This document shows, in pieces, positions 4,967 to 36,250 of a stretch of 64,000 nucleotides of DNA. Both the position numbers and the translations under genes were made by a program. Below the pieces are notes generated by a model. That model did not search any database, was not told the DNA's origin, and was given only the letters and a program-made list of their open reading frames with translations. The stretch is from Macrostomum lignano (lineage: Eukaryota). Position 1 is the stretch's first letter, and every line of letters begins with the position of its first letter. The stretch lies in contig NIVC01001547.1 in assembly GCA_002269645.1 (NCBI GenBank), positions 186,001-250,000 on the forward strand, written 5' to 3'.

Positions 4967-5140
4967 GATTCTAAGGCTCACAGAGGAATTTCTGAGATGT
5001 CAAGACTCATGAGGAATTGCTGAGATGCCTATGTTTCAATTGGAACTTGTTGGTAGGCCAAGTAAAAAGTAGGTCAAGTGGAGAGTTATTGGGAAGTGGG
5101 TAGATGGTGAGTGGGTAGATGGGGAGTGGGTAGACAGGGA

Positions 5141-6188: not shown

Positions 6189-6236
6189 CCCCCCTATTTT
6201 TTATCAAAAAGATCGAATAATAATATTACCTCGTAA

Positions 6237-6477
6237 TTATCGTATGTTTGTTTCTTCACACTCGAACAACTCTCCGGTCGTGTTGTACAGATCCGGATAA
6301 GGTATCAGTGGATACCTCAACGGGTGGCAGGCGCGTCGACGCTCATCAAACAGCACAGCCTCGCACTGACCAGCTTTGCACCTGGTCGTGCAATCCAGGC
6401 TGCTCATCACGTGGTCAGTCCAGTAGAGCGGGTCAGTGAAGGATGTGGGTGCCGAGATGGCGATGTAGTTCCTTGGA
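6237..6477 (-). pseudogene. PAN/apple-like domain fragment
   Basis: Translation LDCTTRCKAGQCEAVLFDERRRACHPL has a PAN/apple-like cysteine spacing (C-x3-C-x4-C...F...C); no supportable start or splice structure. Confidence 0.3.
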
Positions 6478-6976
6478 AGTAGTATGAGTTTATGCAACTC
6501 TGCCGCACTTGCACTGCGGAGATAGGCGGTAATGTAAAAGGATAGGAGGGCGTAAAAGAGCCAGCTGAGATAGCCAATGGAAATAAGGGCGTGGGGTGGG
6601 TGTGATTGGCTGGGCGGCGCGGGTGGTGAAACGCTTAATGCAACTCTGCCGCACTGGGGGTGGCAGGCAGCAAAGCAAAGAATCGGAAGGTTTTGGAATA
6701 GCAGAGTAAACAAATTAAAAACAAGGTAGGCATGGCGTGGAAACGTCCACCTCAATTTGTGCCTGGCCATTGCAACTCCTCGGCGTCCCCACTGTGTTTA
6801 TCCTATAGCATGCCTATGCACTATTTGTCAGTGCGGAGTGAAATAGATAAGAGAGAGGCTCTGGTCTTCTTGAGTGTCTGGCTCTGGCGATTCTAATAAA
6901 TGGGCAATAAACTTTGTAACGGGTGCGGTGCTTGAGTGGAAAGGGTAGGGTTTGAAGTGGAGGTGAGGTTGGTGAG

Positions 6977-7693
6977 CTCTAAAACAGTTGTTCAACTCTG
7001 CCGCACTTTCACTGTGCAGGGACAGAGAGGTGGGCTCTAAAACAGTTGTTCAACTCTGCCGCACTTTCACTGTGCAGGGACAGAGAGGTGAGCTCTAAAA
7101 CAGTTGTTCAACTCTGCCGCACTTTCACTGTGCAGGGACAGAGAGGTGAGCTCTAAAACAGTTGTTCAACTCTGCCGCACTTTCACTGTGCAGGGACAGA
7201 GAGGTGAGCTCTAAAACAGTTGTTCCACTCTGCCGCACTTTCACTGTGCAGGGACAGAGAGGTGAGCTCTAAAACAGTTGTTCAACTCTGCCGCACTTTC
7301 ACTGTGCAGGGACAGAGAGGTGAGCTCTAAAACAGTTGTTCAACTCTGCCGCACTTTCACTGTGCAGGGACAGAGAGGTGAGCTCTAAAACAGTTGTTCC
7401 ACTCTGCCGCACTTTCACTGTGCAGGGACAGAGAGGTGAGCTCTAAAACAGTTGTTCCACTCTGCCGCACTTTCACTGTGCAGGGACAGAGAGGTGAGCT
7501 CTAAAACAGTTGTTCAACTCTGCCGCACTTTCACTGTGCAGGGACAGAGAGGTGAGCTCTAAAACAGTTATTCAACTCTGCCGCACTTTCACTGTGCAGG
7601 GACAGAGAGGTGAGCTCTAAAACAGTTGTTCAACTCTGCCGCAATTTCACTGTGCAGGGACAGAGAGGTGAGCTCTAAAACAGTTGTTCCACT
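6977..7693 (+). repeat. 58-bp tandem array, about 12 copies
   Basis: Unit cagttgttcaactctgccgcactttcactgtgcagggacagagaggtgagctctaaaa. Confidence 0.95.
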
Positions 7694-8568
7694 CTAGTGG
7701 TGAAACGCATATGCAATTCTGCCCTGGGTTTTTTTTCGTCCATAACTTGGGTGCGATTTCGCACCCTGTGCTAGATTTCAGGGTGCGATCTTCAAGACCA
7801 GGATGCGCTGCACTGCTGCAGACAAAAACTGGTCTAACACTAATAACACTAAAGACGTCCATAACACTAAATTGTTAAATCCGCATCACATCCTTGCAAA
7901 AAATTCTGGTGCGCTTTTCACACCCTGAGTCAAATTTCAGGGTGCGATTTTTAAGACCAGGATGCTATTCGCACCCATTCGCACAAAAAACCCAGACTCT
8001 GCCGAGATAGGAGGGCCATGGTAGTATAGAGCCCTATTGCATTGGGTTTGAAAGTGGGATGGGGGAAATCCGAGAGGAGGGGGTTAGGCGTTGTATGGGT
8101 CTGAGGTTGGTTAGGCAATGGCGCAGGCCTACGCACCTATGTCCCTCCCCCCTCCCCATTGTACACTGAGAGATATAAGGGGCTGGGCAGAGCTGTGGTT
8201 AGTTCAAGTCTTGCCGGCGGTGTAAAGGGAAAAATATAGGTATGAAAATCCGAAGGGCTGGATGATACAGTGTTCGGATCATAAAAGCTAGTTGGGGCTC
8301 ACGACGCTCTCACTGCTAGGCTCTTCCGTTGATCTCAGTTTTACAACTGTATAGGCGGTTTATGGTACAGAACGAAGCCCAATGAATATAAAGTAAATAT
8401 TGTGGGAAATTTTATTAGATAAAGGTCTGGGGTCTACTAAGCACAAAGTTTGTTATTGCGCCAGAATAATATCGGCGTGTACGAGTAATTATTTTTCTTC
8501 TTCTAGTCTACCACAACAACTGCGCTGTGTACACCGTTCTTGGAAAGAAAATTAGGGAGGGGGGTTCG

Positions 8569-9025
8569 ATTGGTCGGTTTGAGGAACAACTGGATTGGGG
8601 TTGGTGGGGAACAAATAATGATGTACATTTTATGCTGATTGGAGAGGATTGGTCGGTTTGAGGAACAACTGGATTGGGGTTGGTGGGGAACAAATAATGA
8701 TGTACATTTTATGCTGATTGGAGAGGATTGGTCGGTTTGAGGAACAACTGGATTGGGGTTGGTGGGGAACAAATAATGATGTACATTTTATGCTGATTGG
8801 AGAGGATTGGTCGGTTTGAGGAACAACTGGATTGGGGTTGGTGGGAACAAATAATGATGTACATTTTATGCTGATTGGAGAGGATTGGTCGGTTTGAGGA
8901 ACAACTGGATTGGGGTTGGTGGGAACAAATAATGATGTAAATTTTATGCTGATTGGAGAGGATTGGTCGGTTTGAGGAACAACTGGATTGGGGTTGGTGG
9001 GGAACAAATAATGATGTACATTTAA
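8569..9025 (-). repeat. 78/79-bp tandem array, about 6 copies
   Basis: Unit (minus strand) ccccaccaaccccaatccagttgttcctcaaaccgaccaatcctctccaatcagcataaaatgtacatcattatttgtt. Confidence 0.95.
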
Positions 9026-9134
9026 TGGGGATTGGAGGGTACTGTATTCAGTGGTCAGTGTTCCGCAAATTGTATATATATAAATGAAGTGAAAAATAAC
9101 TGCAGTCTTCCGAATTCTCACTTCCGCCGCAACA

Positions 9135-10154
9135 ATGAAGAAGATTAGCGACTCATGTGCTACCTTTGAAGTCTGCCTAACTTGCAACAAGTGCGTTGTT
9201 GGATTTTTAAAGCCTGGCCATCACAAAGAGTGCAACAAGAGCACTTTCAACGTTTGCTGGCAGTGTGGCGTTGTAATGAAGCGTGAAGGAAAAGCGGGAA
9301 AATTCACAGCTCACCGCGGGCATCAGCAGCTGCCTACTGGAGACAATGGAATGAAAAATTTAAGACGCATAGTTATGCAGAAAGCGCATCAAATAGCCGG
9401 AGAGCAAACCGCTGCACGACAGGCTCTCAGCCAATTAATAAACGGTGTAATTAGAGACGGCTGTAGCAGCGAGGATGACTTTGTTCAGCAGCCGCAGCAG
9501 TCACAATTCCAACGCCCACTCGGTGCTCAGTCGGCTAGACATCCCCCGGATATCAGAGGAAAGCAGATCCGCATGGACAGTCCCGACAGCCTTCTGTACG
9601 AAGAGCCAACCGATGAGGAGACTGAGGACAGCGACATTGCTATCAACAATGAGCAGCCTCTTAGCATCAGCGAGCGGCAGCAGCAGCAGCCTCCAGCCAT
9701 CGGCGAGCAGCCTCCTAGCATCAGCGAGCAGCAACAGCAGCCTCTTAGCATCAGCGAGCAGCAGCAGCAGCCTCCAGGCATCGGCGAGCAGCCTCCTAGC
9801 ATCAGCGAGCAGCAGCAGCAGCCTCCAGGCATCGGCGAGCAGCAACAGCAGCCTCCCAGCATCAGCAAGCAGCAACAGCAGCCTCTTAGCATCAGCGAGC
9901 AGCAGCAGCAGCCTCCAGGCATCGGCGTGCAGCTTTCAAGCATCAACAACATTGGTGAACAGATTGCTCAGCTAAACATTATTGAAGAACCGGCTGGATT
10001 GGATTCCCTGATGGAGGTATTGGGAGACGGGGAATTTGAGGCTGCTAATAATGTCGTACCTCGATGCCAACTGCAACTGGTGCTGCCACCAGTAATTGGA
10101 GCAGGATATATTGTAAAAATTGAAAATGACAGCATTATTTTTGTGTCTCGTTGA
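9135..10154 (+). CDS. Unknown protein: Cys/His-rich (zinc-binding-like) N-terminus, acidic patch, ISEQQQQPP repeats; encoded in the inverted arm
   Basis: ATG-started 339-aa ORF; CLTC...HHKEC and CWQC...HRGH motifs; mirrored, frameshifted copy at 20291-21368. Confidence 0.55.
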   Translation: MKKISDSCATFEVCLTCNKCVVGFLKPGHHKECNKSTFNVCWQCGVVMKREGKAGKFTAHRGHQQLPTGDNGMKNLRRIVMQKAHQIAGEQTAARQALSQLINGVIRDGCSSEDDFVQQPQQSQFQRPLGAQSARHPPDIRGKQIRMDSPDSLLYEEPTDEETEDSDIAINNEQPLSISERQQQQPPAIGEQPPSISEQQQQPLSISEQQQQPPGIGEQPPSISEQQQQPPGIGEQQQQPPSISKQQQQPLSISEQQQQPPGIGVQLSSINNIGEQIAQLNIIEEPAGLDSLMEVLGDGEFEAANNVVPRCQLQLVLPPVIGAGYIVKIENDSIIFVSR

Positions 10155-10306
10155 GCAAGCGAATTCTTGGTCACTTGGTCATTCTTGGCTATTGTGTATC
10201 TTAAAAATTCAGTTTAACTTACATTTTTTACTTTAATTTGTACTTTACCTTTTTTATTTACAATAAGCCAAGAAGTGTTTTTTGTTTAAATCAATAGCGA
10301 TTAGCA

Positions 10307-10650
10307 TCCATGGGAGAGGGTCTCCCCTGACATGCGAGTTTGCTACAGACAGCTATCAAAGAGTGTGCACCAGTTTAAGTGGAACGATGGAACCCGTCCG
10401 TACATGGAACTGGCGGAAGACATTCTGGGGATTGCCAGTGGTCCGATCTGGACAAATGGGGAAAGGAAGTCTATTTTCCTGACTGAGCTGCTTGGTAGAC
10501 AGGTTTATAACCTAGAAGATTTGGGAGCACCCTCGATTAAAGATTCAGATACTGGCTGTGCAGTGAGAAATTCATTGCTGCACTACAGTTGGCTTAAGCC
10601 AAAGTTCTGCATCAACTTAAGAAGCGAGCAGTGTCCGTGGCACAGGGGCA
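10307..10650 (+). pseudogene. 5'-truncated fragment resembling a small Cys/His-containing Polinton-associated protein
   Basis: PWERV...HQFKWNDG...PY...GERKSIFL...VYNLEDLGAPS...C...H...C resembles, from recall only, a conserved small Polinton/adintovirus ORF; the resemblance begins exactly at the inner end of the left arm. Confidence 0.35.
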
Positions 10651-11277
10651 GTGAAGTTGGCAGAAGATTTGGTGAAGAAGTCAAGGATCGAAATGAGTCC
10701 ACCTGCAGCTACAGCCCTAAGAGTGGCCAATCTGGTTGGCGGAGTGGATCTGAGACTGGATGGTGGCAGGGGCGCCCAGCTGCCTCTACGGGAACTGGCT
10801 CTCAGCATGGCTCATGTGATCTACCGGCCCGTCTGGCCCCGGGTGCTCATCAAGCGGATGCGAAGTCCCAGAGTGACTCTGCTACTCTACCCTACTGGGC
10901 AACTGAGCATCTGTGGCGCCAAGACCCACGCAGACGCCAAAAGGGCTGCCCGTCGCTTTGTGGCTATGCTGCATCGGAGAGTGCCGGATCAACTGCTGCC
11001 TCATCAAACAATTTGTGTTCGAATTAAAACTATTACTGCTCATGGACGTTTTAAGCTCCAAAATGCGCTACCGCTTACTGAACTTGTTAAAGTTTTGCCC
11101 AAAGCCCAGTATGAACCAGAAACATTTTCAGCTTTAGTTTGTCAACTTAAGTATTGTAAATGCTTGCTTTTTCATAATGCTTCTTATATTCTAAGTGGGG
11201 CGAAATCTCTGCGTATGCTAAAATCCGACAGTTCTTCCCTGTTTCGCTCTGTTAACACACTTATGCAACTAAAATAA
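10651..11277 (+). CDS. Divergent TATA-binding protein (TBP/TRF)-like protein, intronless, core domain only
   Basis: Both TBP repeats align by eye: ANLVGGVDL, YRP, RSPRVTLLLYPTGQLSICGAK...AKRAARR, then YEPETFSALV and LLFHNASYILSGAK. Confidence 0.8.
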   Translation: MKLAEDLVKKSRIEMSPPAATALRVANLVGGVDLRLDGGRGAQLPLRELALSMAHVIYRPVWPRVLIKRMRSPRVTLLLYPTGQLSICGAKTHADAKRAARRFVAMLHRRVPDQLLPHQTICVRIKTITAHGRFKLQNALPLTELVKVLPKAQYEPETFSALVCQLKYCKCLLFHNASYILSGAKSLRMLKSDSSSLFRSVNTLMQLK

Positions 11278-11461
11278 AGCACAATAATTACCCGTCTTTA
11301 ATCTTCCGACAAGAACTAGCAGAAAAAAACTTTAATATGCCTTGTTTACTAGTTTTATTTTTTGGTTAGAAAAGATGCTAAAAAATTGTCAGCAAACTGC
11401 AACACAACGAAAATTGATACTAATATTAAAATAACATAGGAAAAGAAAGAAAATGAAAATG

Positions 11462-14154
11462 CTAACACTCATAAAAGTTAAGCAAGTTTTGAAAAAGCAT
11501 TTGCACAGGTGCTTCTCGATTGTAACGGCGGCAGCTGTGGCGGCAGGGGTCTCTTAGAGCAAAGTGCCCATACGGAAGACTTTGGTTTGGGGAAGTCCAC
11601 GCACGCTTGTCCTCCCATACAGTCAGGGCACGCTTCTGTTGCTCTAAAGTGACTACTCTGTGTCGTCGGCTAGCGATTCTGCGTGTCAAGACGCGAAGCT
11701 CCTTCAAACTGGCAAACGCCTGCATGTAGTCATCGTGTGTGATTTCTGCCCGCAGCACACTCTTCTGAACACCTTTGGCTGCCTTCTTCCCTCCAGACTC
11801 GGCCTTCATCGAGTATAGTTTTGGTCTCAAAAGGATCCATTCACGATGGGGATTGCCTGCAGATTCGTCCTTTATGCAGCCTAACTTGGCTTTTAGATCA
11901 TCGGATCGGAATTGATGGTCGGCCGGGAAGTTTGAGGTATCTAGCAATCGCTGGCGAATGAGTTCTGGTAGAACAGCACTCTGAACATCGATGTTTTTAA
12001 AGCACAGAAAGAAGGAATCGGTGTCCCCACCGCATAGGGAAACTCCTTGTTGGAGAGCAGGATTCTCAAATGTTGGCTTTAGCTTTTCATAGTACAATCG
12101 GTACATCGCCAGCTTAGAGTCATCAAAAACACATTGACCTACGTAGATTGGGCGGTCAAGAGTGATTGAAGTCTTGAAAAATTGAAAAACTACTAAGTCT
12201 TGAGTCACAATCGTAAAGTCCTTAAGATTCGGACGCGATGAATAGATTTTGAACTGCTCCTCATTGTTAGAAATTCGAACACTGAGCCTCTTCCGTACGT
12301 TTTCCATCGTTTTGCCGAACAGGGAGTTATTCTTCAGTTTGTAATAGTCTTTTTCGAATTCCGTTGTAGCCGCTGAGCGCTTTTTGCTGTTTCTGTCAAT
12401 GTAGGCTTGGAAAATTGCAGCTTGACAAAATTGAATAGCTCTTCGGACCTTTTTTAGTCGCATACCGTGACGCAAGTAGAACTTCAAAATTCGGAAATGT
12501 ACGACGTAGGATTCCTTGTCATGACATGTGAGTAAAAGTTTCACACAGCCTTTGTACGGCTCGTTGCGAGTGTTCAATTCGCCCCAAAGACGTTTCATGA
12601 ATGGCGGAAACTCTTTCGAGCTTAGGCGCGGCCTTCTCGGGGGCAAATGGCAAATCTTGTGTCTGCGTGTGGATTACATCTGGATATTCCAAATCAACCT
12701 CAAATAGGTAGCCAACTGGACCATCGTCATCAAAATTTAAAATTTAGAAGCTTTTAGAAGCTACTTAAATTTAATTTAAGTAGCTTCTCTTCTGTCCATT
12801 CACACAGTTCTTCTTCACTAAGCCACTCAAAGTCACTGACGGGTAGTTTTTCGGACAGCGCTTGCCCGTAGAGATTATTCATGTCTACGGGGAGCAAAGA
12901 ATTTGTCTCGGCATTAGAAGCTGCGCTTGATGAATCTGCACCATCTGACGACTGGTGACTGGTGACTGGTCCGGCAGTAACATGATGAACGTTCGTGAAG
13001 GTCATTCCTCCACGAATGCCAAGCTCAAAGAGTCTGTACTTCTCAGCATCGTCGAGCAACTGGAGCGGTGTTGGCGCGGATTTCAGCGCGGAATCAAATG
13101 ATAGACCTGGTGTAGTAAAGTAGTGGGCTGGGTCAAGACCGTCATCATGGAGACTCAAACGGCGAAAGTTCTGAAAAACATCGGCAAGTTGACGGATGTC
13201 AAGCTGCAGGTAGGCAAGCATGTAGTCGTGCAAATTTTTTGCTTCGATCTGCTTCCAGGCTTTGCGCGCATGAGCATAGCTCTCCTCACTGCAAGCTGTC
13301 TTTGTCAGAGAGTTAAAAAACTCTTCTCTGCTCGGAAGTTCGGTCACTGCCAAATTCGCGGGGGATTTGACGAAATCATAGGGAAAGACTCCCTTGATAG
13401 ACAAAGTTTCATTAGTTAACTTTGGAAAGCAGCTTTTCATTTGCTGAGTGATTTTTCTGTCCTGGAGTGGTAAGTTGCGAATCAGTTTGTCTAGACCCGC
13501 GTTTAAAAACTGGAATGAATCGAGGAACTGCAGAGTGAAGAAAATTGTTTTCTTTTTGCCTTTCGGTAGAGTGATTTCGGCGATTGGGAAATCTACTCGA
13601 AGAGACATATAGCGTTCAGAAGTCTGAGGAATGACACTCAGCTTCCAGTTTTTCATATTTCCTAACGCTGTTGAAAACAGGAGGTGCATGTCATAATTTC
13701 GGAGATTATGGAAGAAACTCGGCAGAAATCTTCGGCGAAGTTGCGCTAATTTGTTACACCGTGAACATGCGGCGCCTTTGAATTTTCCAGTCAGATGATC
13801 AGGGTCATAGTGCTTGTCATTAGTGTCAGTAAACTGTCGATCACAGTAATGACAGTTGGAGGATTCACTGAAGATATGACTAGCAATAGTGTCTGCTTCA
13901 GCCGTTTGGTAGCTGTGCCTTCTGTTCCATTCATAGACTTCTCGAGCCACGCGTTCCAGCTCATGAAGAAACGTTTCCATACACTCCAATGGATTCGAAC
14001 TGGAGACCAACTTCACCTTACCTTGATCCTTGAGTGGTGGTCCCTTCATGCCTTCACGAGAAACGAGTAGAAATCCACCCGCTGCAGGCAGATGCTCGCT
14101 AATAAAGACGGTTTTGCCAGTTACCATGACCTCATCTGGTCTTGCTTGTACATG

Positions 14155-14234
<80 letters not shown>

Positions 14235-15395
14235 GTGTGCTGCAGACTTGCTCATTGTCGCTGACCTCCATTTCCTTAACCTTCTGATGCATGACCTCTC
14301 GAGTGTGGGGGCCTAGCGGAGAATTAAATGCTTCAATATCAGCATAGATGGCGAACGGTGCTTCAATAGTTTTGAAGTAGTTTTGAAAAGACAGCACGCT
14401 GCGCTTCTCAGTAGGAACTCGTTCCTTGACAGCAAACTCATTAGAGCGATAGCACTGCTCTCTGTGCTCACTTAGCTTCTGATCAGTAACGAAAGAGCTC
14501 AAGCAGCGTTCACACCATTTTCTGTGGTAAAGACCGCTTTTACTGTTTAGTAGCCTATCAAGGCTCACAATTCCGCACCAGTGTTTATCCTCTTCATCCT
14601 TGTTAGCTGATTTGTTCAATAGTAGGAGAATAACTACTTTGCGACTGCATGCGACTTCAACTCGTGGCTGCCTCAGCACACTGACACCGTTACTGCTTGA
14701 CCAAGAAAAAACTACAAAACATAACCTTGGGTTCAGTAATTCGATTCGATTTAGCTGGTTGAGTCCAACGGGTAAGGAAATTCCTGAAAGATTGATATCG
14801 TTCAACCAGTCCTTGTAAGTAGAAAACCTTTGAGGGTTTTTCCTCAAATTCTCATCACCGTGATGCAGCGCTGCAAGGCAGGCATACAAAAAACAATCAG
14901 AGCCAGTACTAGGAGGATTGATGACGGCTTTTTTTGCCTTCAGCAGAGGAGGTAATTCAAAATTTCTTGCGTGACCAGAGTAGAAGCGCAGTCTTTGACC
15001 AACCGCAATATTCAAGTCGATGCAGTTGACGCACACAATCACCCAACCACTGCCATTTGTGTTCATCTTCTCAATGATGCCTTCGCAACCATCAATCTGC
15101 TGCTTCCACCAATCATCAAAGCAAGCGGCGTCATTGACAGGTTGCAAACGAGTGCTTACCCATCTTTCTTCCTGGTTCACCACTTCACCAGCTTGGATTC
15201 TGTTCATTCGGATGCTCATTTTTAGCTGCGCTCTAACTAAAAGATTTGGATTCACCATCTTCTCGAATAAAATTCGCTGTATTGCTTCCCTGCTCCGTCG
15301 GGCGAGTTCAAATGGGTCACATGGTGCATCGCTTGGCACGGAAATTCGATACACCACCAGGGTTTCGTTGTGCGCACTTGCTACTTGCTGAATGT
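11462..15395 (-). pseudogene. Polinton-type (protein-primed class) family-B DNA polymerase with endonuclease VII-like zinc motif, disrupted
   Basis: GSGW N-terminal motif, C2HC-like finger CERC...HREQC, Exo I IYADIE, CHYC...DHLTGKFKGAACSRCN, Exo II HNLRNYD, Exo III YLQLD, Pol A DMNNLYG, Pol B KLKNNSLFGK, Pol C GDTDS; stop/frameshifts around 12620-12790. Confidence 0.9.
14153..14234 (+). repeat. (GCT)n microsatellite, in frame as poly-Ser inside the polymerase
   Basis: About 27 GCT units read as AGC (Ser) on the coding strand. Confidence 0.95.
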
Positions 15396-15578
15396 CTAAA
15401 ATGAAAAATTAACAGCTTTGCTTATTTTCTGTTACTCAAAGGATGGTATTCCATGATAAAGAAATTTAGACTCAATAAGCACACTTAAATCGAATTTCTC
15501 GATTTTTAAATACAAAACTTCGAATGCACCCAGGAATTAAATAACTTAAGGCTGAAATTAAAAATGTTGTTGACTCAC

Positions 15579-16005
15579 GATAAGGATGAATATTGCTGGC
15601 ACCGTTGTTTTCGATCAAGCTGAGTTCACTTCTTGCACTGCCGCCGCCGGTGTCGCTTCCTGCACTGCCGCCGCCGGTGTCGCTTCCTGCACTACCGCCG
15701 CCGGTGTCGCTTCCTGCACTACCGCCGCCGGTGTCGCTTCCTGCACTGCCGCCGCCGGTGTCGCTTCCTGCACTGCCGCCGCCGGTGTCGCTTCCTGCAC
15801 TACCACCGCCGGTGTCGATCAGACTGGAACCGCTACTAGCACAATCTTGCTTAGTGTTGTTGGTGTCGGTTTCAGAGAGCCCATCGAAATCACTCTCCGA
15901 GTAGTCTGCCCCGGAACTTGATTCAGACCAATTATCTTCGCTCTCTGATTCTGACCAGCAGTCACAATCGGACTCTGAAAACTCGCTTGAGTCCTGCTCT
16001 GCCAC
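15579..16005 (-). CDS. Probable first exon of the polymerase: acidic Ser/Asp/Glu-rich region plus 27-bp repeats (DTGGGSAGS)n
   Basis: ATG at 16005; donor C|GTGAGT at 15579/15578 and acceptor TTTTCATTTTAG| at 15396/15395 are both phase 1 and join in frame to PolB, which otherwise lacks an ATG. Confidence 0.5.
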
Positions 16006-16476
16006 TTTGCCTGTTATTTGGTTCCCTTAGCTGCAATTAGTTGAGTGGTCAAATACATCTCTAATACAAAGTATGGATACAAATTAAACTTTCAAACTAT
16101 TATATTTAAGTGAAAAACTAATATTGAAATTGATTAAATAGAAACGAAATTCCAACTTATCCAGTCATAATGAAGTAAAAAATCGAATGCTAGCAGTATA
16201 TTTTTACTTCAATTTTTCTGCATCAAAGTATTTAGACTTACAATTACAATGCTATCAGGGTAAGCTTTTGATTGTCAAAATGAATTTAATAGCCCCTGCC
16301 AGTTACCGCAGGCAAAAAAAAATTGAAAACTGGGGCTACGACCGGTGCTGCTTGAGGCAGTTCTAGATTTTCAAAAACTTGTATTCATATTTGAGTCAAC
16401 AATTAAATGATTGGCTTATTTAATTGTAGATTGATACTACTAAAAGCTATGATGCTCGAAATATTCTATCTAGCTT

Positions 16477-16572
16477 TGCTAATCGCTATTGATTTAAACA
16501 AAAAACACTTCTTGGCTTATTGTAAATAAAAAAAAGCTAAAGTACAAATTAAAGAAAAAATTTAGGTTAAAA
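16477..16572 (-). repeat. Inner segment of right inverted arm
   Basis: Reverse complement of 10212-10306 (tgctaatcgctattgatttaaacaaaaaacacttcttggcttattg...). Confidence 0.85.
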
Positions 16573-16924
16573 CTAGCAATCTAGCGCCCCCCTTCGGGGT
16601 GGCCAATAAGCAAGGGACGAATCCTTTAAAATGAAAAAAAATTCTTAGGGAGGGGGGCTAGGAATCGAATTCTCATTTTAATTCCAGGCTTATGTACCAA
16701 TAAAACATGCTTGTGCAGAATTTTATAACAGACATTGAAATTCAACCATACTTGCCTTCTTTCAGAGCTACTTCTACCAGTATGCTTCAGTACGCTACCA
16801 GTACCCTTGTAAGCCTTGACATGTCAGCAATCCCCCCCCACAAGCCTTAACATATCAACTCCCCCCTTGATATCTCAGCAATGCTCCCATAAGCCTTGAA
16901 ATCTTAAAAAATCTGTCTACTTTC

Positions 16925-16960
16925 TAACCCTAACCCTAACCCTAACCCTAACCCTAACCC
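16925..16960 (-). repeat. Interstitial telomere-type repeat (TTAGGG)6
   Basis: Six taaccc units on the plus strand. Confidence 0.85.
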
Positions 16961-17899
16961 TAAAGCATTGAAATTTCAGTAATTCTCTCTAAGAGTCTAT
17001 AGCACTACTACAGCATTATATCGATTCCCTGCAAGCCTCGACATCGTAGGGATTCCCAAATGAATCTCTTAACTTTGACATGAAGCTTCTTTTTTTTACA
17101 TTACGCTTTTTCTATCAGCGATCCCTCCCGTGAGGAGCCAACAAATAATGTAATAACTTTTTTCCAATAAACTACATGTAGCTTCTGACATTAGCCTTGA
17201 CATCTCATTTATTCCCCCGTGAGCCTTGACATCTCAGCTATAGATAGATAGATAGATTCCCCTCGTAAGCCTTGACATGTCAGCGATGCCCCCCATAAAC
17301 CTTGAAATCTAAAAAATCCCCTGTTAACCTTGAAACGCGCTAAAATCTAACCCTCAACCCAAACCTGACGTAAACCTAACTTTCACCCAACCTAAAGCCT
17401 TGAAATCACAGCAATTCTTCTTCCCTAAGCCTTGGCATTTAAGTGATTCCTTCTTTAAGAATCACAGCACTATAACGATTCCCTCCAAGCTTTGACATCG
17501 TAGCAATTCCCAAATGAATCTTTTAACTTTGACATGACTTTTATTTTATGTATACATAGTGCTCCTTTTATTTTTACATGACTCTTCTTCTATCAGCGCC
17601 CCCCCCACCGTGGCAAGCCAACAAAGAATACAATAAAAAAACTTAAGTAAAGTACATGTACTTTGAAGTAGCTTCTGACTTTTGCTTTAACATCTCAGAA
17701 ACCCCCCTGTAATCTCAGTTATTCTCTGTGAGCCTTGACGTCTCAGTAATTCTCCCCAGCACAGCACTATAGCTTCATTTAATTTTTATATGACACTTCT
17801 TTCATGTCTGACATGACGCTTCTTTTGATTTTTACGTTACGCTTCTTTTATTCTTCCATGATGCTTCTTAATTTTTTAAATGACACTTTCATTAGTTTT

Positions 17900-18455
17900 T
17901 ATATGAGGCTTCTATGATTTTTTCATGACGCTTCTATGTTAACATGACGCTTCTATGCTTGTTTACATGACGCTTTTATGATTGTTTACATGACGCTTCT
18001 ATGATTGTTTACATGACGCTTGTATGATTGTTTACATGACGCTTGTATGATTGTTTACATGACGCTTCTATGATTTTTACATGACGCTTCTATGATTGTT
18101 TACATGACGCTTGTATGATTGTTTACATGACGCTTCTATGATTTTAACATGACGCTTCTATGATTGTTTACATGACGCTTTTATGATTGTTTACATGACG
18201 CTTCTATGATTTTTGCATGACGCTTCTATGATTTTTACATGACGCTTCTATGATTTTTACATGACGCTTCTATGATTGTTTACATGACGCTTGTATGATT
18301 GTTTACATGACGCTTGTATGATTTTAACATGACGCTTCTATGATTGTTTACATTACGCTTCTATGATTGCTTGCATGACGCTTCTATGATTGTTTACATT
18401 ACGCTTCTATGATTGCTTGCATGACGCTTCTATGATTTTTTACATGACGCTTCCA
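17900..18455 (+). repeat. ~21-22-bp minisatellite inside the Helitron
   Basis: Unit catgacgcttctatgattgttta and variants. Confidence 0.9.
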
Positions 18456-18764
18456 TAATTTTTTTTTGTCTTGGCGTTAAAAAGCTTTAATTAAAAAAAC
18501 TCTACTCTCTAAAAATTCGAACCATCGTCCCTGCATTTAGCAGTTTAGTCTGTTTACCTCTAGGCTAGCTCTCATGAATTTTAGTCATTACCCCTAAATA
18601 GAAAATATTCCCAAGACAGCAAGCATCCCCCCAGTAGCAAGCATCCCCTAATACTCCTAGCAAGCATCCACCCAGATAGCAAGCATCCTGCACATAGCAA
18701 GAATCCCTAAATAGCAAGCATCCCTGGATAGAAATAATCCTATACATGTAGCCAAGCTTATCAA

Positions 18765-19592
18765 GCGCAGTAATCCTTGGCTATCGAGTGCAGTAATCCT
18801 TGGTTTATTAATAGCAATAATCCATGGCTTATCGAGTGCAGTAATTCTTGGTTTGCCAAGTGCAGTAAGTAATCCTTGGTTTATTACTAGCAATAATCCA
18901 TGGCTTATCGAGTGCAGTAATCCTTGGTTTATTAATAGCAATAATCCTTGGCTTATCGAGTGCAGTAATCCTTGGTTCGGGTTGCATTAATCCTTGGTTT
19001 ATTAATAGCAATAATCCTTGGCTTATCGAGTGAAGTAATCCTTGGTTTATTAATAGCAATAATCCTTGATAAATCAAGTGCAGTAATCCTTGGTTTGCCA
19101 AGAGCAATAGTCCTTGGTTTATTGAGTGCAGTAATTCTTGGTTTATTAATAGCAATAGTCCTTGGTTTATTGAGTGCAGTAATCCTTGGTTTATTAATAG
19201 CAATAATCCTTGGCTTATCGAGTGCAGTAATCCTTGGTTTGCCAAGTGCATAATCCTTGGTTTATTAATAGCAATAATCCTTGGCTTATTGAGTGCAGTA
19301 ATCCTTGGTTTATTAATAGCAATAATCCATGGCTTATCGAGTGCAGTAATCCTTGGTTTGCCAAGAGCAATAGTCCTTGGTTTATTGAGTGCAGTAATCC
19401 TTGGTTTATTAATAGCAATAGTCCTTGGTTTATTGAGTGCAGTAATCCTTGGTTTATTAATATCAATAATCCTTGGCTTATCGAGTGCAGTAATCCTTGG
19501 TTTATTAATAGCAACAATCCTTGGCTTATCGAGTGCAGTAATCCTTGGTTTGCCAAGAGCAATAATCCTTAGCTTATCGAGTGCAGTAATCT
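18765..19592 (+). repeat. ~24-bp minisatellite with alternating sub-units inside the Helitron
   Basis: Units gagtgcagtaatccttggtttattaatagcaataatccttggcttatc and variants. Confidence 0.9.
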
Positions 19593-20290
19593 AAGTGTTT
19601 TTTTTTAGTCCTTTAATAAAAGCTTTTAATAAAAAAATTTACACTACTACTTAGATTCGAACCCAGGTCGCTGCATTAGCAGTCTGGTCTGTTCAGCTCT
19701 AGGCTAGCTCTCATCGAAGTTATCAGTGAATTTGTACCACTTATATAATTCAACACTCACACCAAGTCAGGTAGAGTAAAAAGTCACACGAAGCAGTTAT
19801 GACATAATCAATTTCTTAGGCAAGTCAGTACCAGTGTCTATGAAAGCTAACAATATGGTTACGTAATATAAATTCAGTACTGCGCTATGCTTTCACACTC
19901 AAAGCTGTGACGCAATTCAATTGAGTGTCAAATTCAGCCAGTACACAGGCGATAAATAAAGTGTATTGTGATGCAATCTATTTCAGAATCAGAATTCAAC
20001 CAGTCAGTTTTATCTCTAGCATTCTTACAATGCATTTCAAGTCAAAAAGTTTGCTTGACCTTTGCAAAAAAGCATGTTTTTCGAATATTTAATCCCTTTA
20101 GCATCGAGCAATTTCTTAGCCACGGTGCATGTACAGTCACGGGAAAATTTCTGATCGAACAGTGCAAGTTCGAACAAAATCGGTCCAGCCATTTTTTCTC
20201 TAATCGATCACATAGACACAGACAGACTTAAGATGAATTTTTAAGATACACAATAGCCAAGAATGACCAAGTGACCAAGAATTCGCTTGC

Positions 20291-21368
20291 TCAACGAGAC
20301 ACAAAAATAATGCTGTCATTTTCAATTTTTACAATATATCCTGCTCCAATTACTGGTGGCAGCACCAGTTGCAGTTGGCATCGAGGTACGACATTATTAG
20401 CAGCCTCAAATTCCCCTTCTCCCAATACCTCCATCAGGGAATCCAATCCAGCCGGTTCTTCAAAATGTTTGGCTGAGCAATCTGTTCACCAATGTTGTTG
20501 ATGCTTGAAAGCTGCTCGCCGATGCCTGGAGGCTGCTGCTGCTGCTCGCTGATGCTAAGAGGCTGCTGTTGCTGCTTGCTGATGCTGGGAGGCTGCTGTT
20601 GCTGCTCGCCGATGCCTGGAGGCTGCTGCTGCTGCTCGCTGATGCTAGGAGGCTGCTCGCCGATGCCTGGAGGCTGCTGCTGCTGCTCGCCGATGCCTGG
20701 AGGCTGCTGCTGCTGCTCGCCGATGCCTGGAGGCTGCTGCTGCTGCTCGCTGATGCTAAGAGGCTGCTGTTGCTGCTCGCTGATGCTAGGAGGCTGCTCG
20801 CCGATGCCTGGAGGCTGCTGCTGCTGCCGCTCGCTGATGCTAAGAGGCTGCTCATTGTTGATAGCAATGTCGCTGTCCTCAGTCTCCTCATCGGTTGGCT
20901 CTTCGTACAGAAGGCTGTCGGGACTGTCCATGCGGATCTGCTTTCCTCTGATATCCGGGGATGTCTAGCCGACTGAGCACCGAGTGGGCGTTGGAATTGT
21001 GACTGCTGCGGCTGCTGAACAAAGTCATCCTCGCTGCTACAGCCGTCTCTAATTACACCGTTTATTAATTGGCTGAGAGCCTGTCGTGCAGCGGTTTGCT
21101 CTCCGGCTATTTGATGCGCTTTCTGCATAACTATGCGTCTTAAATTTTTCATTCCATTGTCTCCAGTAGGCAGCTGCTGATGCCCGCGGTGAGCTGTGAA
21201 TTTTCCCGCTTTTCCTTCACGCTTCATTACAACGCCACACTGCCAGCAAACGTTGAAAGTGCTCTTGTTGCACTCTTTGTGATGGCCAGGCTTTAAAAAT
21301 CCAACAACGCACTTGTTGCAAGTTAGGCAGACTTCAAAGGTAGCACATGAGTCGCTAATCTTCTTCAT
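20291..21368 (-). pseudogene. Frameshifted mirror copy of the 9135-10154 arm ORF
   Basis: Identical N-terminus MKKISDSCATFEVC; frame lost near 20960 (C5 run versus C4) and again near 20462. Confidence 0.7.
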
Positions 21369-21477
21369 TGTTGCGGCGGAAGAGAGAATTCGGAAGACTG
21401 CAGTTATTTTTCACTTCATTTATATATATACAATTTGCGGAACACTGACCACTGAATACAGTACCCTCCAATCCCCA

Positions 21478-22328
21478 TTAAATGTACATCATTATTTGTT
21501 CCCCACCAACCCCAATCCAGTTGTTCCTCAAACCGACCAATCCTCTCCAATCAGCATAAAATGTACATCATTATTTGTTCCCCACCAACCCCAATCCAGT
21601 TGTTCCTCAAACCGACCAATCCTCTCCAATCAGCATAAAATGTACATCATTATTTGTTCCCCACCAACCCCAATCCAGTTGTTCCTCAAACCGACCAATC
21701 CTCTCCAATCAGCATAAAATGTACATCATTATTTGTTCCCACCAACCCCAATCCAGTTGTTCCTCAAACCGACCAATCCTCTCCAATCAGCATAAAATGT
21801 ACATCATTATTTGTTCCCCACCAACCCCAATCCAGTTGTTCCTCAAACCGACCAATCCTCTCCAATCAGCATAAAATGTACATCATTATTTGTTCCCCAC
21901 CAACCCCAATCCAGTTGTTCCTCAAACCGACCAATCCTCTCCAATCAGCATAAAATTTACATCATTATTTGTTCCCACCAACCCCAATCCAGTTGTTCCT
22001 CAAACCGACCAATCCTCTCCAATCAGCATAAAATGTACATCATTATTTGTTCCCCACCAACCCCAATCCAGTTGTTCCTCAAACCGACCAATCCTCTCCA
22101 ATCAGCATAAAATGTACATCATTATTTGTTCCCCACCAACCCCAATCCAGTTGTTCCTCAAACCGACCAATCCTCTCCAATCAGCATAAAATGTACATCA
22201 TTATTTGTTCCCCACCAACCCCAATCCAGTTGTTCCTCAAACCGACCAATCCTCTCCAATCAGCATAAAATGTACATCATTATTTGTTCCCCACCAACCC
22301 CAATCCAGTTGTTCCTCAAACCGACCAA
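21478..22328 (+). repeat. 78/79-bp tandem array, about 11 copies
   Basis: Same unit as 8569-9025, opposite strand. Confidence 0.95.
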
Positions 22329-23204
22329 TCGAACCCCCATCCCTAATTTTCTTTCCAAGAACGGTGTACACAGCGCAGTTGTTGTGGTAGACTAGAAGAA
22401 GAAAAATAATTACTCGTACACGCCGATATTATTCTGGCGCAATAACAAACTTTGTGCTTAGTAGACCCCAGACCTTTATCTAATAAAATTTCCCACAATA
22501 TTTACTTTATATTCATTGGGCTTCGTTCTGTACCATAAACCGCCTATACAGTTGTAAAACTGAGATCAACGGAAGAGCCTAGCAGTGAGAGCGTCGTGAG
22601 CCCCAACTAGCTTTTATGATCCGAACACTGTATCATCCAGCCCTTCGGATTTTCATACCTATATTTTTCCCTTTACACCGCCGGCAAGACTTGAACTAAC
22701 CACAGCTCTGCCCAGCCCCTTATATCTCTCAGTGTACAATGGGGAGGGGGAGGGACATAGGTGCGTAGGCCTGCGCCATTGCCTAACCAACCTCAGACCC
22801 ATACAACGCCTAACCCCCTCCTCTCGGATTTCCCCCATCCCACTTTCAAACCCAATGCAATAGGGCTCTATACTACCATGGCCCTCCTATCTCGGCAGAG
22901 TCTGGGTTTTTTGTGCGAATGGGTGCGAATAGCATCCTGGTCTTAAAAATCGCACCCTGAAATTTGACTCAGGGTGTGAAAAGCGCACCAGAATTTTTTG
23001 CAAGGATGTGATGCGGATTTAACAATTTAGTGTTATGGACGTCTTTAGTGTTATTAGTGTTAGACCAGTTTTTGTCTGCAGCAGTGCAGCGCATCCTGGT
23101 CTTGAAGATCGCACCCTGAAATCTAGCACAGGGTGCGAAATCGCACCCAAGTTATGGACGAAAAAAAACCCAGGGCAGAATTGCATATGCGTTTCACCAC
23201 TAGA

Positions 23205-25143
23205 GTGGAACAACTGTTTTAGAGCTCACCTCTCTGACCCTGCACAGTGAAAGTGCGACAGAGTTGAACAACTGTTTTAGAGCTCACCTCTCTGACCCTG
23301 CACAGTGAAAGTGCGGCAGAGTGGAACAACTGTTTTAGAGCTCACCTCTCTGACCCTGCACAGTGAAAGTGCGGCAGAGTTGAATAACTGTTTTAGAGCC
23401 CACCTCTCTGACCCTGCACAGTGAAAGTGCGGCAGAGTTGAACAACTGTTTTAGAGCTCACCTCTCTGTCCCTGCACAGTGAAAGTGCGGCAGAGTTGAA
23501 CAACTGTTTTAGAGCTCACCTCTCTGTCCCTGCACAGTGAAAGTGCGGCAGAGTTGAACAACTGTTTTAGAGCTCACCTCTCTGTCCCTGCACAGTGAAA
23601 GTGCGGCAGAGTTGAACAACTGTTTTAGAGCCCACCTCTCTGTCCCTGCACAGTGAAAGTGCGGCAGAGTTGAACAACTGTTTTAGAGCCCACCTCTCTG
23701 TCCCTGCACAGTGAAAGTGCGGCAGAGTTGAACAACTGTTTTAGAGCTCACCTCTCTGTCCCTGCACAGTGAAAGTGCGGCAGAGTTGAACAACTGTTTT
23801 AGAGCCCACCTCTCTGTCCCTGCACAGTGAAAGTGCGGCAGAGTTGAACAACTGTTTTAGAGCCCACCTCTCTGTCCCTGCACAGTGAAAGTGCGGCAGA
23901 GTTGAATAACTGTTTTAGAGCTCACCTCTCTTTCCCTGCACAGTGAAAGTGCGGCAGAGTTGAACAACTGTTTTAGAGCCCACCTCTCTGTCCCTGCACA
24001 GTGAAAGTGCGGCAGAGTTGAATAACTGTTTTAGAGCTCACCTCTCTGTCCCTGCACAGTGAAAGTGCGGCAGAGTTGAACAACTGTTTTAGAGCCCACC
24101 TCTCTGTCCCTGCACAGTGAAAGTGCGGCAGAGTTGAATAACTGTTTTAGAGCTCACCTCTCTTTCCCTGCACAGTGAAAGTGCGGCAGAGTTGAACAAC
24201 TGTTTTAGTGCCCACCTCTCTGTCCCTGCACAGTGAAAGTGCGGCAGAGTTGAACAACTGTTTTAGAGCTCACCTCTCTGTCCCTGCACAGTGAAAGTGC
24301 GGCAGAGTTGAATAACTGTTTTAGAGCTCACCTCTCTTTCCCTGCACAGTGAAAGTGCGGCAGAGTTGAACAACTGTTTTAGAGCCCACCTCTCTGTCCC
24401 TGCACAGTGAAAGTGCGGCAGAGTTGAACAACTGTTTTAGAGCTCACCTCTCTGTCCCTGCACAGTGAAAGTGCGGCAGAGTTGAACAACTGTTTTAGAG
24501 CTCACCTCTCTGTCCCTGCACAGTGAAAGTGCGGCAGAGTTGAACAACTGTTTTAGAGCTCACCTCTCTGTCCCTGCACAGTGAAAGTGCGGCAGAGTTG
24601 AATAACTGTTTTAGAGCTCACCTCTCTGTCCCTGCACAGTGAAAGTGCGGCAGAGTTGAATAACTGTTTTAGAGCTCACCTCTCTGTCCCTGCACAGTGA
24701 AAGTGCGGCAGAGTTGAACAACTGTTTTAGAGCTCACCTCTCTGTCCCTGCACAGTGAAAGTGCGGCAGAGTTGAACAACTGTTTTAGAGCTCACCTCTC
24801 TGTCCCTGCACAGTGAAAGTGCGGCAGAGTTGAACAACTGTTTTAGAGCTCACCTCTCTGTCCCTGCACAGTGAAAGTGCGGCAGAGTTGAACAACTGTT
24901 TTAGAGCTCACCTCTCTGTCCCTGCACAGTGAAAGTGCGGCAGAGTTGAACAACTGTTTTAGAGCTCACCTCTCTGTCCCTGCACAGTGAAAGTGCGGCA
25001 GAGTTGAACAACTGTTTTAGAGCTCACCTCTCTGTCCCTGCACAGTGAAAGTGCGGCAGAGTTGAACAACTGTTTTAGAGCCCACCTCTCTGTCCCTGCA
25101 CAGTGAAAGTGCGGCAGAGTTGAACAACTGTTTTAGAGCTCAC
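23205..25143 (-). repeat. 58-bp tandem array, about 33 copies
   Basis: Reverse complement of the 6977-7693 unit. Confidence 0.95.
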
Positions 25144-28100
25144 CAATCTCACCTCCACTTCAAACCCTACCCTTTCCACTCAAGCCCCGCACCCGTTACA
25201 AAGTTTATTGCCCATTTATTAGAATCGCCAGAGCCAGACACTCAAGAAGACCAGAGCCTCTCTCTTATCTATTTCACTCCGCACTGACAAATAGTGCATA
25301 GGCATGCTATAGGATAAACACAGTGGGGACACCGAGGAGTTGCAATGGCCAGGCACAAATTGAGGTGGACGTTTCCACGCTATGCCTACCTTGTTTTTAA
25401 TTTGTTTACTCTGCTATTCCAAAACCTTCCGATTCTTTGCTTTGCTGCCTGCCACCCCCAGTGCGGCAGAGTTGCATAAGCGTTTCACCACCCAGCCAAT
25501 CACACCCACCCCACGCCCTTATTTCCATTGGCTATCTCAGCTGGCTCTTTTACGCCCTGCTATCCTTTTACATTACCGCCAATGTTTGGGATTCACCAAT
25601 GTTTGGGATCCACCAATGTTTAGAATCCACCAATGTTTGGGTTCCACCAATGTTTGGGATCCCCCAATGTTTGGGTTCCACCAATGTTTGGGATTCACCA
25701 ATGTTTGGGATCCACCAATGTTTAGGATCCACCAATGTTTAGGATGCCCCAATGTTTGGGATCCACCAATGTTTGGGTTCCACCAATGTTTAGGATCCAG
25801 CAATGTTTGGGTTCCACCATTGTTTGGGATTAACCAATGTTTGGGATTCACCAATGTTTGGGATCCAGTAATGTTTGGGATTCACCAATGTTTGGGATCC
25901 AGCAATGTTTGGGATCCAATAATGTTTGGGTTGCACCAATGTTTAGGATCCACCAATGTTTGGGATTCACCAATGTTTGGGATCCAGCAATGTTTTTGAT
26001 AACCTAATGTTGGGGAAACCAATGTTTATGATCGACCAATAATAAGGATCAACCAGTGTTTTGCATTCACCAATGTTTTGGTTTCACCAATGTTTGGGTT
26101 CCACCAATGTTTGGGATTCACCAATGTTTGGGATCCACCAATGTTTAGGATCCACCAATGTTTAGGATCCCCCAATGTTTGGGATCCACCAATGTTTAGG
26201 ATCCACCAATATTTGGGATTCACCAATGTTTGCGATCCAGCAATGTTTGGGTTCCACCAATGTTTAGGATCCAGCAATGTTTTGCATTCACCAATGTTTG
26301 GGTTCCACCAATGTTTAGGATCCACCAATGTTTGGATCCACCAATGTTTGGGATCCCCCAATGTTTGGGATCCACGGATGTTTGGGTTCCACCAATGTTT
26401 AGGATTCACCAATGTTTGCGATCCAGCAATGTTTGGGTTCCACCAATGTTTGGGATTAACCAATGTTTGGGATTCACCAATGTTTGGGATCCAGTAATGT
26501 TTGGGATTCACCAATGTTTGGGATCCAGCAATGTTTGGGATCCAATAATGTTTGGGTTCCACCAATGTTTAGGATCCACCAATGTTTGGGATTCACCAAT
26601 GTTTTGGTTTCACCAATGTTTGGGTTCCACCAATGTTTGGGATTCACCAATGTTTGGGATCCAGTAATGTTTAGGATCCCCCAAGGTTTGGGTTCCACCA
26701 ATGTTTGGGATCCACCAATGTTTGGGTTCCACCAATGTTTAGGATCCACCAATGTTTGGGATTCACCAATGTTTGCGATCCAGCAATGTTTGGGTTCCAC
26801 CAATGTTTGGGATTAACCAATGTTTGGGATTCACCAATGTTTGGGATCCAGTAATGTTTGGGATTCACCAATGTTTGGGATCCAGCAATGTTTGGGATCC
26901 AATAATGTTTGGGTTGCACCAATGTTTAGGATCCACCAATGTTTGGGATTCACCAATGTTTGGGATCCAGCAATGTTTGGGTTCCACCAATGTTGGAGAT
27001 TAACCAACGTTTGGGATTAACCAATGTTTTTGATAACCTAATGTTGGGGAAACCAATGTTTATGATCGACCAATAATTAGGATCAACCAGTGTTTTGCAT
27101 TCACCAATGTTTTGGTTTCACCAATGTTTGGGTTCCACCAATGTTTGGGATCCACCAATGTTTGGGTTCCACCAATGTTTAGGATCCCCCAATGTTTGGG
27201 ATCCACCAATGTTTAGGATCCACCAATGTTTGGGATTCACCAATGTTTGCGATCCAGCAATGTTTGGGTTCCACCAATTTTTAGGATCCAGCAATGTTTT
27301 GCATTCACCAATGTTTGAGTTCCACCAATGTTTAGGATCCACCAATGTTTAGGATCCACCAATGTTTAGGATCCCCCAATGTTTGGGATCCACGGATGTT
27401 TGGGTTCCACCAATGTTTGGGATCCACCAATGTTTGGGATTCACCAATGTTTTGGTTTCACCAATGTTTGGGTTCCACCAATGTTTGGGATTCACCAATG
27501 TTTGGGTTCCACCAATGTTTGGGATTCACCAATGTTTGGGATCCCCCAATGTTTGGGATCCACGGATGTTTGGGTTCCACCAATGTTTAGGATCCACCAA
27601 TGTTTGGGATTCACCAATGTTTGGGTTCCACCAATGTTTGGGATTCACCAATGTTTGGGATCCAGCAATGTTTGGGATTCACCAATGTTTGGGATTCACC
27701 AATGTTTGGGATTCACCAATGTTTGGGATTCACCAATGTTTTGGTTTCACCAATGTTTGGGTTCCACCAATGTTTGGGATTCACCAATGTTTGGGTTCCA
27801 CCAATGTTTGGGATTCACCAATGTTTGGGATTCACCAATGTTTGGGATTCACCAATGTTTGGGATCCAGTAATGTTTGGGATTCACCAATGTTTGGGATC
27901 CAGCAATGTTTGGGATCCAATAATGTTTGGGATCCAGTAATGTTTGGGATTCACCAATGTTTGGGATCCAGCAATGTTTGGGATCCAATAATGTTTGGGA
28001 TTCACCAATGTTTGGGATCCAGCAATGTTTGGGATTCACCAATGTTTGGGATCCAGCAATGTTTGGGATCCACCAATGTTTGGGATTCACCAATTTTTTG

Positions 28101-28511
28101 GATTCACCAATGTTTGGGATTCACCAATGTTTGGGATCCACCAATGTTTGGGATTAACCAATGTTTTTTGTAACACGCGGTATTTGGCAGCACCAAAAAC
28201 ACGCGAAGGCCCCGTGAGGCAGTGATCGCTTTATTTATGCAAGTTGAAGCTAAGCCTGCGATGTACATAGAGAGCGAACGTACATTAAATCAATACGATG
28301 ATTCAGCTAATTATTTGTCACGATTGCTAACAGTTCAGACTGCCTCTAAGGCAAGGAATAAACTATTACATTTCTCCCCCACAAAAGGAGCATAGCGACA
28401 GGGAATAAAAAAAATGAGAGTGAGACACAGCTAGCGAAATGTAGAGTAAAAAGAGGAACGCACACAGTAAAATACATTTCAATCACAGTCTCTGACAGTC
28501 CATGGCCTCAG

Positions 28512-31500: not shown

Positions 31501-31796
31501 CGCTCGATGCCGCCGAGCGACACTGCCAGGCTGGCCACCTGCCGCACCGGCACCGCTTGCTGGATGACTGCCCGCAGCTCCAGGTGCACGCTCTCCAGCT
31601 GAGCTGGCCGCATGCTCTGCAGGACCCGCTTGTCCACGATTGACACCTGGCTGCCTGAGTCGATAAGCGCCGTGACGTCCGCGCCTCCGATCCTGCACTG
31701 CAGCTTGGATGTCGCCGAGTTCGGCCTGATGACGACTGCCGCTGCGCTGCTGCTGGCTGCACCGCTCCCCTCTGCGCCCAGGAACAACCCACTCAC
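28512..31796 (-). pseudogene. Gypsy pol: protease, RT, RNase H, integrase (two frameshifts in integrase)
   Basis: LIDSGS, LTIDYRELN, FSVIDLNGGYFQI, YKDD, YTDAS, HEGIGGH...CQEC, AIDVL...SDQGANF, LSYNSRVHSST; split over ORFs 29406-31796, 29104-30141 (3' part) and 28512-29156. Confidence 0.9.
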
Positions 31797-31810
31797 GCTG
31801 GGGCCCGCGC

Positions 31811-34626: not shown

Positions 34627-34685
34627 TTTTTAACAACTTCAACGCGTTTCGCACGCCATGGTGCATCGTCAGGATTTTATTAGAA
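34627..34685 (-). ncRNA. Minimal hammerhead ribozyme (Penelope-type)
   Basis: Reverse complement of the 37035-37092 motif. Confidence 0.7.
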
Positions 34686-36249: not shown

Positions 36250-36250
36250 C

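Follow-up and report, generated by a model that had tools for sequence, protein, structure and literature searches.

We studied a 64,000-nucleotide stretch of the genome of the flatworm Macrostomum lignano (contig NIVC01001547.1, here C1547, positions 186,001 to 250,000), hereafter the window. It carries a Polinton-type element in which two multi-kilobase inverted arms enclose a small unique core. This locus is almost certainly a defective derivative, present at a single site, of an ordinary Polinton family. The explanation as a whole, namely that the defective copy likely formed by break repair primed inside its left terminal repeat, we consider highly probable. The only unusual trait of the copy, a gene for a protein resembling the TATA-binding protein (TBP), is common to its relatives.

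Structure of the palindromic copy

Comparison of the window with itself verified the inverted arms and the unique core between them. The arms, of 3.8 and about 5.45 kb, surround about 6.17 kb of unique DNA (positions 10307-16476), which holds the protein-primed DNA polymerase gene (PolB), an open reading frame (ORF) of the TBP family, a 5'-truncated ORF and an acidic repeat ORF (Table 1). This agrees with what had been read from the letters of the window before any search (the sequence-only reading): about 6.2 kb that hold PolB, one TBP-like gene and part of another gene, with PolB and the TBP-like gene now confirmed by Pfam. The start of the element had been placed at 6525 in that reading; the true left end is the AGTAGT at 6478, and the self-comparison gives the arm as 6478/6522-10306.

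From the BLAST ends, the right arm consists of the segments 16477-16571 and 20228-25583, 5,451 bp in all, and stops about 44 bp before the terminus, where a 17-bp satellite begins. Identity between the arms is 94-99%, varying by segment. The arms are of unequal length because the copy numbers of their 58-bp and 79-bp tandem arrays differ (Table 1); such arrays account for 1,477 of 3,829 bp on the left and for 3,162 of 5,451 bp on the right.

Genes for the integrase and the virion are missing from the element, as the sequence-only reading had it: when the genes of sibling copies served as tblastn queries, neither the window nor 30 kb of the neighbouring contig gave a match to integrase, ATPase, protease, capsid or PC4. 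With one terminus and a broken polymerase, the copy is also unable to provide an integrase or capsid of its own. It is not an intact Polinton, being without integrase, virion genes, an open PolB and two termini with a target-site duplication (TSD). Nor does it qualify as an autonomous linear plasmid-like replicon, given the broken PolB, the one terminus and the single site.

Sibling Polintons in the same genome

Using PolB as query we obtained 111 matches in the genome (109 scored; 1,033 candidates). The close copies number 12, the window included; 11 are at 96-100% identity and one, decayed, is at 84%, and many other matches lie at 45-62%. At E<=0.001 there are 246 PolB homologues among 7,997 scored candidates. 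With TBP as query there were 151 genome matches (150 scored; 232 candidates), mostly adjoining PolB. Near-identical proteins carry source names that likewise indicate M. lignano.

A 25-nucleotide terminal pattern starting with AGTAGT has 31 matches in the genome and none in the control. The flanks of these 31 exact terminal matches define 13 insertion sites, the site of the window being one of them, and sibling copies are 96-98% identical across sites. With the Polinton criteria taken from the accessible text of PMC8097293, (AGT)2 ends and a 6-bp TSD, both ends and an exact TSD are found at 8 of the 13 sites (GTCGAC, CTAGTT, CACCAC, GTCTTG, GCTAGG, TATCGC, CAAGCC and GTCGTT, the last split over two contigs).

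A complete Polinton layout is present at seven sites: 15-19 kb, longer where there are later insertions, with AGTAGT ends and terminal inverted repeats (TIRs) of 0.5-1.2 kb. The order of genes at these sites is PC4, integrase, a minor-capsid-like ORF, a small ORF, major capsid, a putative protease, a putative ATPase, a further two small ORFs, an exonuclease-like ORF and TBP, followed by PolB on the opposite strand. The ORF of about 283 amino acids is called exonuclease-like by motif only; it has no match in Pfam, PHROG or PDB. The remaining six sites are one with an internal deletion (C255), three with rearranged or decayed copies (C38/C144, C4113 and C346), one seen only near its end (C822) and that of the window.

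The integrase domain rve was matched at E 5e-13 in both sibling ORFs scanned, one of which has a chromodomain, and the DDE residues are visible. PC4 was matched in a sibling at E 2.4e-9. The sibling ATPase has visible Walker A and B motifs, with Pox_A32 at E 0.028, below the curated cut-off. Motifs are also visible in the protease, for which Peptidase_C5 at E 0.003 is again below the curated cut-off and PDB gave no match.

For the major capsid, the model of a 378-amino-acid sibling ORF, built on an alignment of nine sequences and of low confidence (mean pLDDT 53), matches the double-jelly-roll (DJR) capsids of PBCV-1, Sputnik and mavirus at E 1e-5 to 2e-4. A PDB search with the sequence of this ORF found no match, and its fold from a single sequence reached a pLDDT of only 30. 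A homologue 78% identical to it scores 0.98 to a DJR cluster in the Atlas, with a recognition value below threshold. The 273-amino-acid ORF between the integrase and major capsid genes may be a minor capsid gene, a name given from its position; it has no match in Pfam or PHROG.

The relatives of the window copy are a canonical Polinton family, and their features fit the Maverick definition in the accessible text of PMC8097293.

Several side observations were made on these copies. Within a single element the TIRs often diverge by about 7%, in a manner specific to each side, and other copies have mosaic or nearly matched ends (C96, C4659, C1424 and C2498 versus C986). The families look recombined, with an integrase/capsid module that is 94-99% identical while PolB is 47-61% identical (C878). 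The rearranged copies at C38:1028422, C144:112719, C4113:25036 and C255:198317 show a doubling of one end together with loss of PolB, a fold-back inside the element, and an internal deletion that left the TSD intact.

Derivation of the copy and its second allele

The window copy corresponds to the reverse complement of positions 15165-18840 followed by positions 8655-18840 of the 18,840-bp sibling C4659. It is thus a heavily rearranged Polinton derivative, one of the two possibilities raised by the sequence-only reading. The left 8.65 kb, with the PC4, integrase and capsid genes and the putative protease and ATPase genes, has been replaced by the inverted right 3.68 kb, and the join at 10306 cuts the exonuclease-like gene.

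A 27-nucleotide pattern across the junction occurs twice in the genome, on the window contig and on contig C3259, with the same host flank, that is, at a single insertion site. Since the host flank is the same and C3259 is colinear with the window contig over tens of kilobases (94-99% outside satellite arrays), C3259 is an allele. It has other insertions than the window and a different deletion on the right side.

The Helitron noted earlier in the right arm is indeed an insert with Helitron ends. Neither the left arm nor the allele has it, and it arrived after the palindrome had formed. This Helitron-like insert has at least 40 near-identical copies; all 40 scored matches are about 100% identical (556 candidates).

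Outside the tandem arrays, the two window arms differ from each other at 7 of 2,124 sites (0.3%). A window arm differs from the left arm of the allele by 17 substitutions in 1,530 such sites, and from sibling C4659 by 32 in 2,122 (1.5%). Over 1,264 sites, five derived substitutions are shared by the two window arms and missing from the allele, two are in the right arm only and none in the left arm only. Nine derived sites are common to both window arms and the allele. The five substitutions that both arms have and the allele lacks point to in-place conversion from arm to arm.

At its left end the window copy has, at offsets 135-143, a 9-bp insert typical of integrase-side ends, and is of the right-end type from offset 191. 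In four runs of short assembled contigs, no piece among those listed bridges position 10306; the loose ends show the normal upstream continuation in four of four runs and the normal right-end continuation in two of four. Related empty sites show what the right flank should be. A search for it and for the lost right terminus in C1547:176001-270000 and C3259:1-88000 gave nothing, and none of the 31 exact termini has a flank that matches the lost right end.

Origin of the palindrome

The steps that we infer are as follows. A complete element would have inserted at CTTGGA, and a break in its left half would then have been repaired by invasion of the element's own right TIR. Synthesis would have run 3.7 kb inward beyond the TIR, with rejoining at a 1-base overlap in the exonuclease-like gene. 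The arms would have gone on converting each other, and the two alleles would afterwards have decayed separately. The palindrome was likely caused by repair or conversion primed in the TIR, a process described for Galileo transposons; that the repair took place within the chromosome we regard as somewhat more probable than not. Rearranged members of the family elsewhere (C255, C38/C144, C4113 and C346) count in favour of this explanation.

Some points weigh against this explanation. The right terminus and its flank are lost, which leaves no TSD to compare, and the rearrangement may have come before or after insertion. The 9-bp marker is weak: it is missing from the allele and present at some PolB-side ends, C2498 at least; several ends are mosaics, and the five plus four reference ends were chosen by hand. 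Assembly polishing could partly account for the homogenisation of the arms. Further, C1547 and C3259 are not fully independent since both are contigs of one assembly.

The strongest alternative is a copy-back defective genome, to which we give a modest probability. During protein-primed strand-displacement replication of a free element the polymerase would start at the right end and switch template after 3.7 kb, and the resulting molecule with two right ends would be inserted by the integrase of a helper Polinton. The geometry of the product fits such a switch, the junction has one shared base and no filler, and the genome has many helper copies as well as further fold-back copies (C4113 and C38/C144). 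However, the junction is found at one site only, the left end of the window copy retains the integrase-side marker, and the arms were converted after the alleles had split, so that in-place conversion seems to be active here.

It is improbable that two sibling Polintons, inserted as neighbours in opposite orientation, were fused by a deletion. Recent near-identical copies do exist and nested insertions are common in the region, but the arms are 0.3% apart compared with 1.5% to the nearest sibling. The nine derived sites common to both arms and the allele also speak against two insertions, although later conversion could mask a fusion.

Palindromes are a known artefact of long reads, and the sequence-only reading had allowed for an assembly artefact. 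We think a fold-back chimera of a long read very improbable because C3259, with different secondary insertions, has the same junction; in addition, the arms have unequal array copy numbers and only one of them holds the 3.66-kb insert.

Finally, the long inverted arms, the protein-primed PolB and the failure to find integrase or capsid genes in the window had suggested a new autonomous linear replicon without capsid and integrase, to be given up if other copies had integrase, ATPase and capsid genes and short TIRs. Mapping of the genomic copies found such copies, and this reading therefore fails: the siblings are complete Polintons whose TIRs are ordinary and whose TSDs measure 6 bp, the junction interrupts a gene of the family and lies at one site, PolB is broken in both alleles and one terminus is gone, which leaves it a negligible probability.

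A TBP-like gene across Polinton families

The TBP-like protein of the window has two TBP repeats, which places it in the TBP family, and it matches 35 TBP sequences in PDB (best E 3.6e-14). We compared eight Polinton loci, the window and seven picked from other PolB groups. The gene is present in all eight, which represent several families, including one with a TBP only 37% identical. The gene order is shared by six of the seven picked loci as far as the stretches reach; C254 is ordered differently.

In the six closer loci, nonsynonymous divergence (dN) of the TBP gene outside its overlap with the upstream ORF is 0.27-0.46, compared with a synonymous divergence (dS) of 1.2-2.5, saturated in one, as estimated from 74 codons by a simple counting method. 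As dN is well under dS, the gene is under purifying selection.

The overlap with the 3' end of the exonuclease-like ORF is 335 bp long in the window (10693-11027), in different frames, and recurs in related families. The first approximately 110 codons of TBP are far closer across families (dS 0.09-0.5) than the remainder (dS >1.2), to which the constraint of the overlapping ORF may contribute. Loose contig ends cluster in the TBP gene, at 11045-11047.

Among 1.84 billion representatives the TBP-like protein has five matches at E<=1e-30 and 22 at E<=1e-10. In a tree of 45 rows these proteins stand apart from other TBPs on a long branch; this tree includes 37 database rows hand-picked from about 155 and cut to the last 200 residues, it has no named host TBP, and its long branches meet. 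The nearest outside relative, when used to scan metagenomes, had one weak match, on a 1.5-kb contig without context. We found no report of a TBP in an animal Polinton, or of these flatworm Polintons, in the literature searched, which did not extend to most subscription papers, RepBase or the supplementary genome maps of PMC8502044.

A tentative reading, which we hold to be possible at somewhat less than even chances, is that the flatworm Polintons are a lineage of animal Polintons that carries its own TATA-binding protein and uses it to single out promoters of its own, a strategy that herpesviruses apply to late genes, with the palindromic copy as one decayed member.

The palindrome, as a dead derivative at a single site, is of little weight in itself. 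It does document cleanly, in two alleles, the extension of a TIR and the conversion between arms of a Polinton, and it cautions against defining a new class of element by the TIR length and absent genes of one copy. The greater value lies in the large Polinton population of a laboratory flatworm, which has been active recently (PolB has over 100 matches and TBP about 150) and carries a TBP-like gene under selection. If this protein directs transcription of the element, it would become testable how Polintons turn on their genes, a question on which little is known.

Genes and neighbouring features

Table 1. Features of the Polinton copy and its immediate surroundings, in positions of the window.
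Feature	Positions	Strand	Basis and remarks
Host flank CTTGGA, expected 6-bp target site	6472..6477	+	Four contigs with related empty sites run through this point without the element; right-hand partner lost
Left arm: AGTAGT terminus and inverted copy of the right-hand 3.68 kb of the element	6478..10306	+	3,829 bp; sibling C4659 from 18840 to 15165, reversed
58-bp tandem array in TIR, left arm	6971..7695		12.5 copies; right-arm counterpart 23202-25144, 33.5 copies
79-bp tandem array, left arm	8568..9037		6 copies; right-arm counterpart 21466-22330, 11 copies
Duplicated terminal ORF, 339 amino acids, CxxC pairs and Q/P-rich repeat	9135..10154	+	Same ORF at PolB end of siblings
5'-truncated remnant of the ~283-amino-acid family ORF	10305..11027	+	96% identical to sibling ORF
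Rearrangement junction	10306..10306		Sibling position 15165 (reverse) fused to 8655 (forward); 1 shared base, no filler
TBP-like gene, 194 amino acids, two TBP repeats, open frame	10693..11277	+	Pfam TBP, E 9.5e-21
Protein-primed PolB with endonuclease-VII-like insert	11462..15408	-	Pfam DNA_pol_B_2, Endonuclease_7; two frames, break between about 12600 and 12780
Acidic ORF with 27-bp repeat, upstream of PolB	15472..16026	-	Occurs in siblings
Right arm: native right end of the element, split by Helitron-like insert, end missing	16477..25583	-	Comparison with sibling and allele
Non-coding Helitron-like insert	16573..20233	-	3.66 kb; 5' TC, 3' hairpin and CTAG, between A and T
Native terminal ORF copy, frameshifted relative to left-arm copy	20460..21368	-	ORF comparison
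Unrelated 17-bp satellite adjoining the shortened right end	25579..28166		Tandem-repeat and allele comparison

PolB of the window copy keeps the exonuclease motifs I-III and the polymerase motifs A-C. Its break is common to the window and the allele and is absent in all three other siblings compared. A (CTG)29 microsatellite at 14156-14243 encodes a poly-serine run within PolB; at this position the allele has a 3.5-kb insertion and C1238 one of 4.9 kb. The terminal ORF has no match in Pfam or PHROG. At the PolB end it exists in at least two types, about 46-50% identical, which are swapped within one family (C96, C765 and C1424 versus C4659 and the window).

More divergent Polinton-like genes lie nearby, at C1547:262232-265478 and C3259:24127-31492 (PolB 23-38%; integrase 58%, capsid 38%). 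Directly to the left of the Polinton there is an element resembling a miniature inverted-repeat transposable element (5137-6191), with internally repetitive inverted arms of about 300 bp, and further left an intronless ORF with glycosyltransferase family 7 domains (306-1469, minus strand). To the right, long arrays of the 17-bp satellite (25579-41444) flank a Gypsy-like retroelement (28200-32800) with matches to protease, reverse transcriptase, RNase H and integrase, and an 879-bp inverted repeat is found at 34592-37128.

Comparison with known systems

Linear plasmids have a protein-primed PolB between long inverted arms and no capsid gene. The window copy is similar in its PolB flanked by inverted arms and in having no capsid gene; unlike them, it is chromosomal, found at a single site and derived from a capsid-encoding parent, and its PolB is broken.

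The sibling family is like Polintons/Mavericks in its AGTAGT ends, 6-bp TSDs, TIRs of 0.5-1.2 kb, length of 15-19 kb, protein-primed PolB, rve integrase, DJR major capsid gene and two converging modules, along with a putative ATPase and a putative adenain-like protease. For vertebrate Mavericks, the accessible text of PMC8097293 gives lengths of 12.7-24.6 kb and TIRs of 46-1,447 bp. The window copy differs in that the whole integrase/virion module is gone and the arms are several kilobases long, and the family in that its TBP-like gene overlaps the exonuclease-like ORF. A tentative assignment of the family to the Beta adintovirus type of PolB, as defined in the accessible text of PMC8502044, rests on weak PF03175 scores.

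For Galileo, this repair route to TIR extension has been proposed, and reports of it in Polintons are cited, in the accessible part of PMC3573991. The TIR1-F1-F1-TIR2 copies of Galileo/Foldback elements described there resemble the window copy: a non-autonomous copy, a TIR extended by inverted sequence that adjoins the other TIR, and expanded tandem arrays. However, they belong to another class of element, and the tract recruited in the window copy runs about 2.5 kb past the TIR and includes a gene.

Virus-encoded homologues of TBP are reported from herpesviruses, where such a protein serves the late genes (PMC7498053). In the accessible text of PMC8502044 and its preprint, the TBP label appears only in figure legends (including that of Fig. 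5), on MELD viruses of non-animal eukaryotes. The family of the window likewise has a gene with the TBP fold in a DNA virus-like genome; in contrast to these homologues, its gene sits in animal Polintons and forms a long-branch group of its own.

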